This document shows, one piece after another, positions 42,813 through 42,829 of a stretch of DNA of 56,452 bases. Under the pieces are notes generated by a model. It was not told the DNA's origin, did no database searches, and worked only from the letters and a program-made list of their open reading frames with translations. Numbering within the stretch: the first letter of the stretch is position 1; every line of letters starts with the position of its first letter. Made by a program: the position numbers and the translations under genes. The stretch lies in assembly GCA_000004985.1 (NCBI GenBank), contig GG738938.1, one strand, 5' to 3'. This stretch comes from Naegleria gruberi (lineage: Eukaryota).

Positions 42813-42829
42813 TTTATTGAATATAAAAA

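Follow-up and report, generated by a model that had tools for sequence, protein, structure and literature searches.

In animals, Mirage and Chapaev elements, like the CNEST elements of Cryptococcus, have been described with one open reading frame (ORF) and with CAC-type ends; DUF1258, a family to which transposases of this kind will be compared below, is a C. elegans family. In the PIF/Harbinger elements Harbinger3_DR and Ping/Pong two proteins are both needed for transposition, the second of which targets the transposase to subterminal sites. Among protists, Giardia is known for its AT-rich initiators, and compact bidirectional promoters are a feature of small protist genomes. In plants, CACTA elements as a rule have an ORF2 of their own beside the transposase gene, which in some families supports excision as well as transposition (PMC4158355). 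The lineages of the CACTA/Mirage/Chapaev (CMC) group are still being defined, CNEST of Cryptococcus being a newly described one (PMC12810828), and CMC-EnSpm repeats have been reported by RepeatMasker in Naegleria lovaniensis (PMC6125883).

A preliminary description of 56,452 nucleotides of the Naegleria gruberi genome (contig GG738938.1 of assembly GCA_000004985.1; hereafter the window) drew attention to two start codons lying head to head and 17 bp apart, one opening a transposase gene and the other a gene for a protein of 672 amino acids (aa), here called the partner. Our analyses indicate that the pair represents a CMC-related family of two-gene DNA transposons with an orphan and divergently transcribed partner. 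Transposons with two ORFs are already familiar, and the novelty is the divergent orientation, not the existence of a second ORF. We consider it somewhat probable that the 17 bp mark the middle of an autonomous two-gene transposon of approximately 6 kb, with a compact bidirectional promoter and an accessory partner protein.

Of the systems already known, plant CACTA elements (En/Spm) come nearest to the locus, which shares with them a transposase of the broad CMC/Transposase_21 group, a second element-encoded protein (as predicted here) and repeated subterminal motifs, in both orientations, near the ends. It is unlike them in its termini, described below, in the lack of any Pfam similarity of the partner to TnpA or ORF2, and in its intronless genes. 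The genes of En/Spm lie on one strand and have a promoter in common via alternative splicing, whereas those of Naegleria are divergent with their start codons touching. The preliminary description had stated that the TnpA analogue of CACTA elements is normally produced by alternative splicing, which is correct for En/Spm but not for plant CACTA elements generally, given their separate ORF2 (PMC4158355). With Mirage, Chapaev and CNEST the locus has in common that its best relatives are animal-type DUF1258/Transposase_21 proteins and that its transposase gene, one ORF that lacks introns, encodes the DDE, CxxC and H(3)H layout; in contrast, identity to such proteins is 22–25%, Pfam scores fall under the curated cut-offs, and no homologue of the partner is detectable near three of these more distant transposase relatives. 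The parallel with PIF/Harbinger, where two separate genes likewise lie within one pair of terminal inverted repeats (TIR), is a functional analogy only, the transposase there belonging to an unrelated superfamily and the Naegleria partner having no Myb/SANT domain. Finally, the very short AT-rich stretch upstream of both ATGs, the necessarily tiny leaders and an AAAATG context found also at host genes in the window recall compact protist bidirectional promoters such as the AT-rich initiators of Giardia; unlike these, the spacer of the one related element measures 75 bp.

Results

Two divergent reading frames with adjacent start codons

The start codon of the transposase gene (CAT in plus-strand reading) occupies positions 42810–42812 on the minus strand and that of the partner gene (ATG) positions 42830–42832 on the plus strand, leaving exactly 17 bp, TTTATTGAATATAAAAA, at 42813–42829. 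The preliminary description of head-to-head start codons 17 bp apart is therefore confirmed by a direct reading of 42810–42832. The sequence context is ...ttttcttttaga-CAT-TTTATTGAATATAAAAA-ATG-gaagaa..., such that the CAT is preceded by ...TTTTCTTTTAGA in plus-strand reading and the ATG is followed by GAAGAA. The spacer itself is a candidate shared initiator, or may supply very short 5' leaders.

The partner gene extends over 42830–44848 on the plus strand and encodes 672 aa. The transposase gene (40621–42812, minus strand) is a single ORF that runs from its first ATG at 42812 across an assembly gap of 50 N (41438–41487) to a stop at 40621, giving at least 441 + 271 aa. Our ORF lister, which applies the bacterial code, extends the minus-strand ORF to a TTG at 42851, an extension that is irrelevant in a eukaryote. 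At the composition of the surrounding island a stop codon is expected approximately every 10 codons, so that the probability of a frame remaining open by chance is 6e-30 for 672 codons and 6e-20 for 441 codons; the longest ATG-initiated ORF across 300 shuffles was 107 aa. Because the open-frame probabilities are of the order of 1e-20 to 1e-30, neither ORF is there by chance, and both are real and not accidental reading frames. The N. gruberi annotation does not contain the 672-aa ORF, according to an exact look-up of the protein. Among exact look-ups of the partner and four host ORFs, the sole match was the host RGS ORF at 2484–3083, which is N. gruberi XP_002668886.1/EFC36142.1.

A distant CMC-type transposase

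The minus-strand protein has an N-terminal region that is basic, acidic and Ser-rich, then a Cys-rich CxxC...CxC block, and then a D/D/E catalytic core in which the motifs CxxC and H(3)H are present. Pfam returned two sub-threshold matches to the same segment, DUF1258 (4.5e-7, 30.1 bits against a cut-off of 33.1) and Transposase_21/tnp2 (PF02992; 1.5e-4, 21.5 bits against a cut-off of 28.6). A protein search with the transposase gave four weak matches, and the identity of its relatives is 22–25%. The best relative in the database is a protein of the mosquito Uranotaenia lowii (P0001; E = 1.4e-14, 25% identity), which passes the curated cut-offs of both DUF1258 and Transposase_21 and also matches DUF4218. 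The catalytic residues align with those of the relatives (D in LNSDGV, D in FDLPAR and E in FGFES), as do the CxxC after the second D (GYYCCHIC) and the H(3)H before the E (THLLLH). The expected D.MH segment falls within the 50-N gap at 41438–41487; the frames on the two sides of the gap differ by its arbitrary length, and the protein continues in an open frame beyond it. Judged by its sequence, the minus-strand protein is a distant DDE transposase of CMC type, and the original assignment of one ORF to the CACTA-related group is borne out by the sub-threshold Pfam matches, the homology to P0001 and the catalytic alignment.

Two palindromes were observed within the transposase coding sequence. 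One, at 42527–42562 and approximately 270 bp from the spacer, is the near-perfect 36-bp palindrome TCTGAATCTGAATTTGATAATTCAGATTCAGA; the other, at 42117–42132, equals with one mismatch the subterminal palindrome GATTTAATTAAATC described below.

An orphan partner protein

The partner comprises a helical N-terminus, an acidic low-complexity linker at approximately aa 226–290, a long helical middle and predicted strands at the C-terminus. Pfam, consulted at E values up to 10, contains no family for the N. gruberi protein, the TnpA and ORF2 families included. A search of the PDB with a two-sequence profile returned HtrA1 alone (E = 0.81), which was dismissed as noise. The protein had been described as having no recognisable domain, with which these negative Pfam and PDB results agree. 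There is no DNA-binding signature in the partner and, by hhalign on three segments, no internal duplication, while the models produced by AlphaFold2 were unusable (pLDDT 33.8 for the partner alone, 31.5 for its homologue P0006 given an alignment of two rows).

When 1.84 billion cluster representatives were searched exhaustively with HMMER, one homologue of the partner was recovered, P0006 (E = 3.4e-37), which makes the 672-aa protein a member of an orphan family, and no cellular homologue was present among these 1.84e9 representative proteins. P0006 itself has unrelated weak matches in Pfam, led by N_NLPC_P60 at 0.0041. Among the N. gruberi proteins in the database there is no paralogue of the partner, the annotation also missing the 672-aa ORF itself. 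Only the exhaustive search was effective. The word-indexed search of the partner, an N/K/I-rich low-complexity query, saturated at 8000 candidates and found nothing with either the partner or the partner alignment; it also missed P0006 when this was in the query, and its negatives are hence unreliable. Scans of viral contigs and of prokaryotic genome contigs for the partner or the transposase N-terminus found no relatives, and the same scans of metagenome contigs returned only the contig that encodes P0006. With no homologue of it near three more distant transposase relatives, the partner is, as far as can be seen, specific to this transposon family.

The head-to-head pair recurs in a second element

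P0006 is encoded on the 3,193-bp contig JACCDN010140821.1 (NCBI assembly GCA_013558295.1, and present also in the metagenome collection), which we call L001. Here the partner homologue lies on the plus strand at 820–2367 and onward and the N-terminus of a transposase on the minus strand at 744–1, the two being head to head with a 75-bp spacer. The transposase is 46% identical to that of N. gruberi from Met1 through the zinc-binding-like block IPFYKMYYC...YFFERKL. The called partner gene of L001 stops at 2367 after a one-base frameshift at 2340–2385, while homology runs on in another frame to 2750; with the frameshift corrected, the two partners are 30% identical over the full 672 aa, the C-terminal part included. 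The frameshift would mean that the copy has decayed or that the sequence contains an error. At its right end L001 carries TTGCAGGGAA after an A/T-rich stretch, and the reverse complement of this fits the left end of the N. gruberi element.

Gene content, orientation and terminal motif are thus common to two elements whose proteins are 30–46% identical. The second gene had been put forward as a candidate for an element-encoded protein, and the recurrence of the head-to-head pair in the sole other family member found, a 3.2-kb fragment, supports this. Because gene pair, orientation and terminal motif all recur in L001, the divergent pair is, on this comparison, the conserved core of a small transposon family of which two members are known.

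Start codons and spacer in the two elements

Met1 of the partner and Met1 of the transposase both align with Met1 of their homologues on the independent contig L001, and the N-termini are conserved (MEELSNT/MSRLSET for the partner and M-KRK/M-KRSR for the transposase, N. gruberi/L001). Two codons before the partner ATG of N. gruberi the frame is closed by a TAA, so that 42830 is the most upstream start possible, and in both loci a stop in frame precedes the partner ATG by one or two codons. The A-rich context AAAATG is found at all four start codons of the two loci, each of which also has TTGAAT/ATTCAA directly beside the transposase ATG. The homologue does not share Met28, the next candidate start of the N. 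gruberi partner. The first ATGs of both genes are therefore likely to be the real starts. The converse arrangement, in which downstream methionines are the true start codons and the genes are separated by a conventional spacer, is disfavoured, since conservation runs from Met1 onward, stops lie upstream, the contexts are A-rich and Met28 is not conserved.

Upstream ATGs bear on the possible extent of the leaders, although this is a weak argument in AT-rich DNA for either gene. An out-of-frame ATG at 42795, upstream of the partner, would place the start of the partner mRNA within approximately 34 nt of its ATG, and the transposase leader could reach 79 nt into the partner coding sequence before any upstream ATG is encountered. 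The length of the spacer itself is not conserved, being 75 bp in L001 against 17 bp in N. gruberi. In both, the starts lie well within the 1 kb by which divergent pairs are defined and the arrangement is kept in the relative; the 17-bp spacing is the extreme case of the family's divergent layout.

Borders, repeats and insertion site

Both genes lie in an island of approximately 6.0 kb and 22% GC (40378–46382) between two host genes, with its left end 32 bp past the stop (40345) of the upstream host ORF and its right end 46 bp before the ATG (46429) of the downstream one. The octamer TCCCTGCA has three copies in the 56-kb window, against 0.21 expected, and all are at the island borders (40378 on the plus strand, 40486 and 46375 on the minus strand). 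The outer pair is inverted, and the inverted ends, TCCCTGCAA(A/T-rich), coincide exactly with the borders in composition. The left TIR, TCCCTGCAAAAAAATAAAGTGG (40378–40399, plus strand), was delimited from the octamer and the match to the end of L001, and the right TIR (46361–46382, minus strand; reverse complement TCCCTGCAACTTTTTAATCTGC) from alignment of the ends. The first 18 nt of the left end match the inverted right end of L001 at 17 positions, and the left and right ends of the N. gruberi element align with each other as well as with L001. Whether the TIR reaches further out, to ATCCT..., is uncertain, as L001 does not share this extension.

The end of the element can be summarized as TCCCTGCAAAAAAATAAA and its subterminal repeats as GATTTAATTAAATCC. 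In the left subterminal region (40400–40620) there is an inverted internal copy of the terminal motif, TGCAGGGA, at 40486–40493, and the motif (A/G)GATT(T/A)A begins at 40440, 40476 and 40506. The right subterminal region (46100–46360) contains two tandem units of 46 nt at 49-bp spacing (46135–46229) and a related third copy at 46325–46358, every copy bearing GATTTAATTAAATC(C), of which GATTTAATTAAATC is a perfect 14-bp palindrome. Subterminal motif matches number 15 against 3.9 expected. As for (A/G)GATT(T/A)A, the outermost 300 bp at each end together hold 10 of its 18 copies in the island where 1.8 would be expected, a motif defined post hoc, with a P value that is optimistic as a result.

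A transposase, inverted terminal repeats and a discrete insertion in host DNA are thus found together, from which mobility of the element may be predicted. Strict membership of CACTA is another matter. The ends read TCCCTGCAA... at the left and right of the N. gruberi element and at the right of L001, and not CACTA...TAGTG, and the island borders and their surroundings lack CAC...GTG. Nor is the 3-bp target-site duplication of CACTA elements visible; the element is preceded by ...CCTATTG and followed by ACAAAAAGG..., between which no 2–4 bp agree, as judged from a single complete copy whose border is uncertain by at least 1 nt. Because the ends are not of CAC type, one defining CACTA feature fails, and the element cannot be called CACTA in the strict sense. 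There is no second copy of the element within the 56-kb window. A mimivirus-like promoter, AAAATTGA, and with it a viral origin of the island, was considered and dropped, there being no viral relative and a clear transposon anatomy.

The island, otherwise of approximately 20–22% GC, includes a 330-bp block of 47% GC at 44920–45250, 3' of the partner gene. It contains no Rfam match, tRNA or ORF, shows no excess of RNA structure (z = -0.02 and +0.63) and has no counterpart in L001. On these negatives a structured RNA, a tRNA-derived SINE and a coding sequence were ruled out. The sequence GCAGGGAC at 44947, within the block, is similar to the terminal motif.

Composition and host context

GC content at third codon positions (GC3) is 7.5–11% in the island genes (10% in the partner) against 26–35% in six host ORFs of the same scaffold, which include those at 1189, 2484, 34918 (minus strand), 46429 and 48031. 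In L001, GC3 is 32–35%. The N. gruberi copy, foreign in composition yet apparently intact, suggests that the element was acquired horizontally and recently, the donor being very AT-rich. Other features of the scaffold are its large N gaps and a host ORF at 8–934, possibly cut by the scaffold end, with short repeats containing Cys, Phe and Asn that by eye are pentapeptide-repeat-like.

Host ORFs on the same strand in the window are 90–255 bp apart, and with the island removed approximately 77 bp (40346–40377 plus 46383–46428) would separate the flanking host ORFs. On account of these spacings the promoters and intergenic regions of Naegleria are evidently very compact. The preliminary description had argued that 17 bp leaves no room for two promoters, which presumes large promoters, and the spacings of 90–255 bp and of approximately 77 bp speak for compact ones instead. 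The sequence TTGAAAA(A..)ATG is present at three of seven host start codons (46417–46431, plus strand; 36297–36312 and 55234–55250, minus strand), and the partner bears the related sequence TTGAATATAAAAAATG before its ATG. TTGAAAA..ATG may be an initiator or Kozak-like element of Naegleria, which hints at initiator-like elements very close to start codons and at short leaders in this organism. Our search of the literature on Naegleria promoters, UTRs or transcription starts found nothing usable.

Discussion

The arrangement is best read as two intronless genes, one for the transposase and one for a 672-aa orphan partner, pointing outward from the middle of an element. The spacer and the opening few tens of bases of the two coding sequences would act as one compact bidirectional promoter or initiator. 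From such a shared promoter it would follow that neither mRNA has a leader longer than a few tens of bases, and that the two genes are switched on together; the 5' ends of the mRNAs would abut inside the 17 bp or overlap slightly. The preliminary description regarded an overlap of the 5' ends, or initiation within the adjoining coding sequence, as unavoidable; we regard either as plausible. The 17-bp spacing would then be the compacted extreme of an ancestral divergent layout. We infer that the partner is an accessory factor specific to the element, by analogy with the ORF2/TnpA of CACTA elements or the Myb-like protein of PIF/Harbinger, to neither of which it is similar in sequence. Its most likely task would be to aid the transposase in recognising or pairing the subterminal repeats, or else it may regulate transposition.

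It is unlikely, although the foremost of the alternatives, that the 5' transcripts instead overlap, each promoter lying in the other coding sequence, so that a sense/antisense pair feeds RNAi or transcriptional interference and makes of the locus a self-limiting transposition switch. Given the size needs of Pol II promoters, 17 bp is too short for two separate pre-initiation complexes plus two leaders; the transposase leader may run 79 nt into the partner coding sequence without an upstream ATG; a 36-bp palindrome stands in the transposase coding sequence approximately 270 bp from the spacer; and N. gruberi encodes RNAi components. However, the 75-bp spacer of L001 means that the architecture of the family does not force an overlap, a partner transcript that began before 42795 would include an ATG out of frame with the partner, and the TTGAAAA next to host ATGs suggests that very short leaders are normal.

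Less probable again is that the partner is a passenger or captured gene without a role in transposition, serving for instance host or donor biology, and that its spacing merely reflects genome compaction. Passenger genes such as TET/JBP are carried by transposons of related groups (PMC12730594), the partner is unlike any known transposon accessory protein in Pfam or the PDB, and the distant CMC relatives do without it. Against this, the gene, its orientation and its place by the transposase start have been kept between elements whose transposases are 46% identical, and a recently captured host gene should have relatives, of which there are none that are cellular among 1.84e9 representatives. 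The partner also shares, at 10% GC3, the extreme codon bias of the transposase (7.5–11%).

We think it distinctly improbable that the locus is an immobile relic or domesticated pair, with inverted motifs that are regulatory or coincidental and ORFs kept for a host function, for although no target-site duplication, no second copy in the window and no partner paralogue in the database proteome of N. gruberi were found, the annotation missed the 672-aa ORF itself and its silence on paralogues says little, the catalytic D, D and E are intact, the terminal motif is non-coding, inverted at the ends and conserved across a very deep divergence, and a GC3 of 7.5–11% against 26–35% in the host argues against long residence or a host function.

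Returning to an autonomous two-gene transposon with a shared promoter and an accessory partner, a wider proposal can be built upon it, which we regard as possible but rather doubtful: that these elements constitute a new lineage in Heterolobosea and their relatives, in which a CMC-related transposase depends strictly on an orphan partner of 640–670 aa, expression is driven by an ultra-compact bidirectional promoter, and the N. gruberi copy is a recent, possibly active, AT-rich arrival.

Two-gene DNA transposons are well known, and no long-standing open question is touched by the locus. Should transposition require the partner, however, it would add a new protein family to the few accessory factors, namely TnpA/ORF2 and the Harbinger Myb-like protein, and would define a CMC-related lineage whose ends differ from the CACTA type. 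The touching start codons offer a natural test of the minimum size of a eukaryotic bidirectional promoter. Finally, a two-gene element that is intact and foreign in composition could be a candidate for use as a genetic tool in Naegleria, and could serve to mark horizontal transfer between amoebae.
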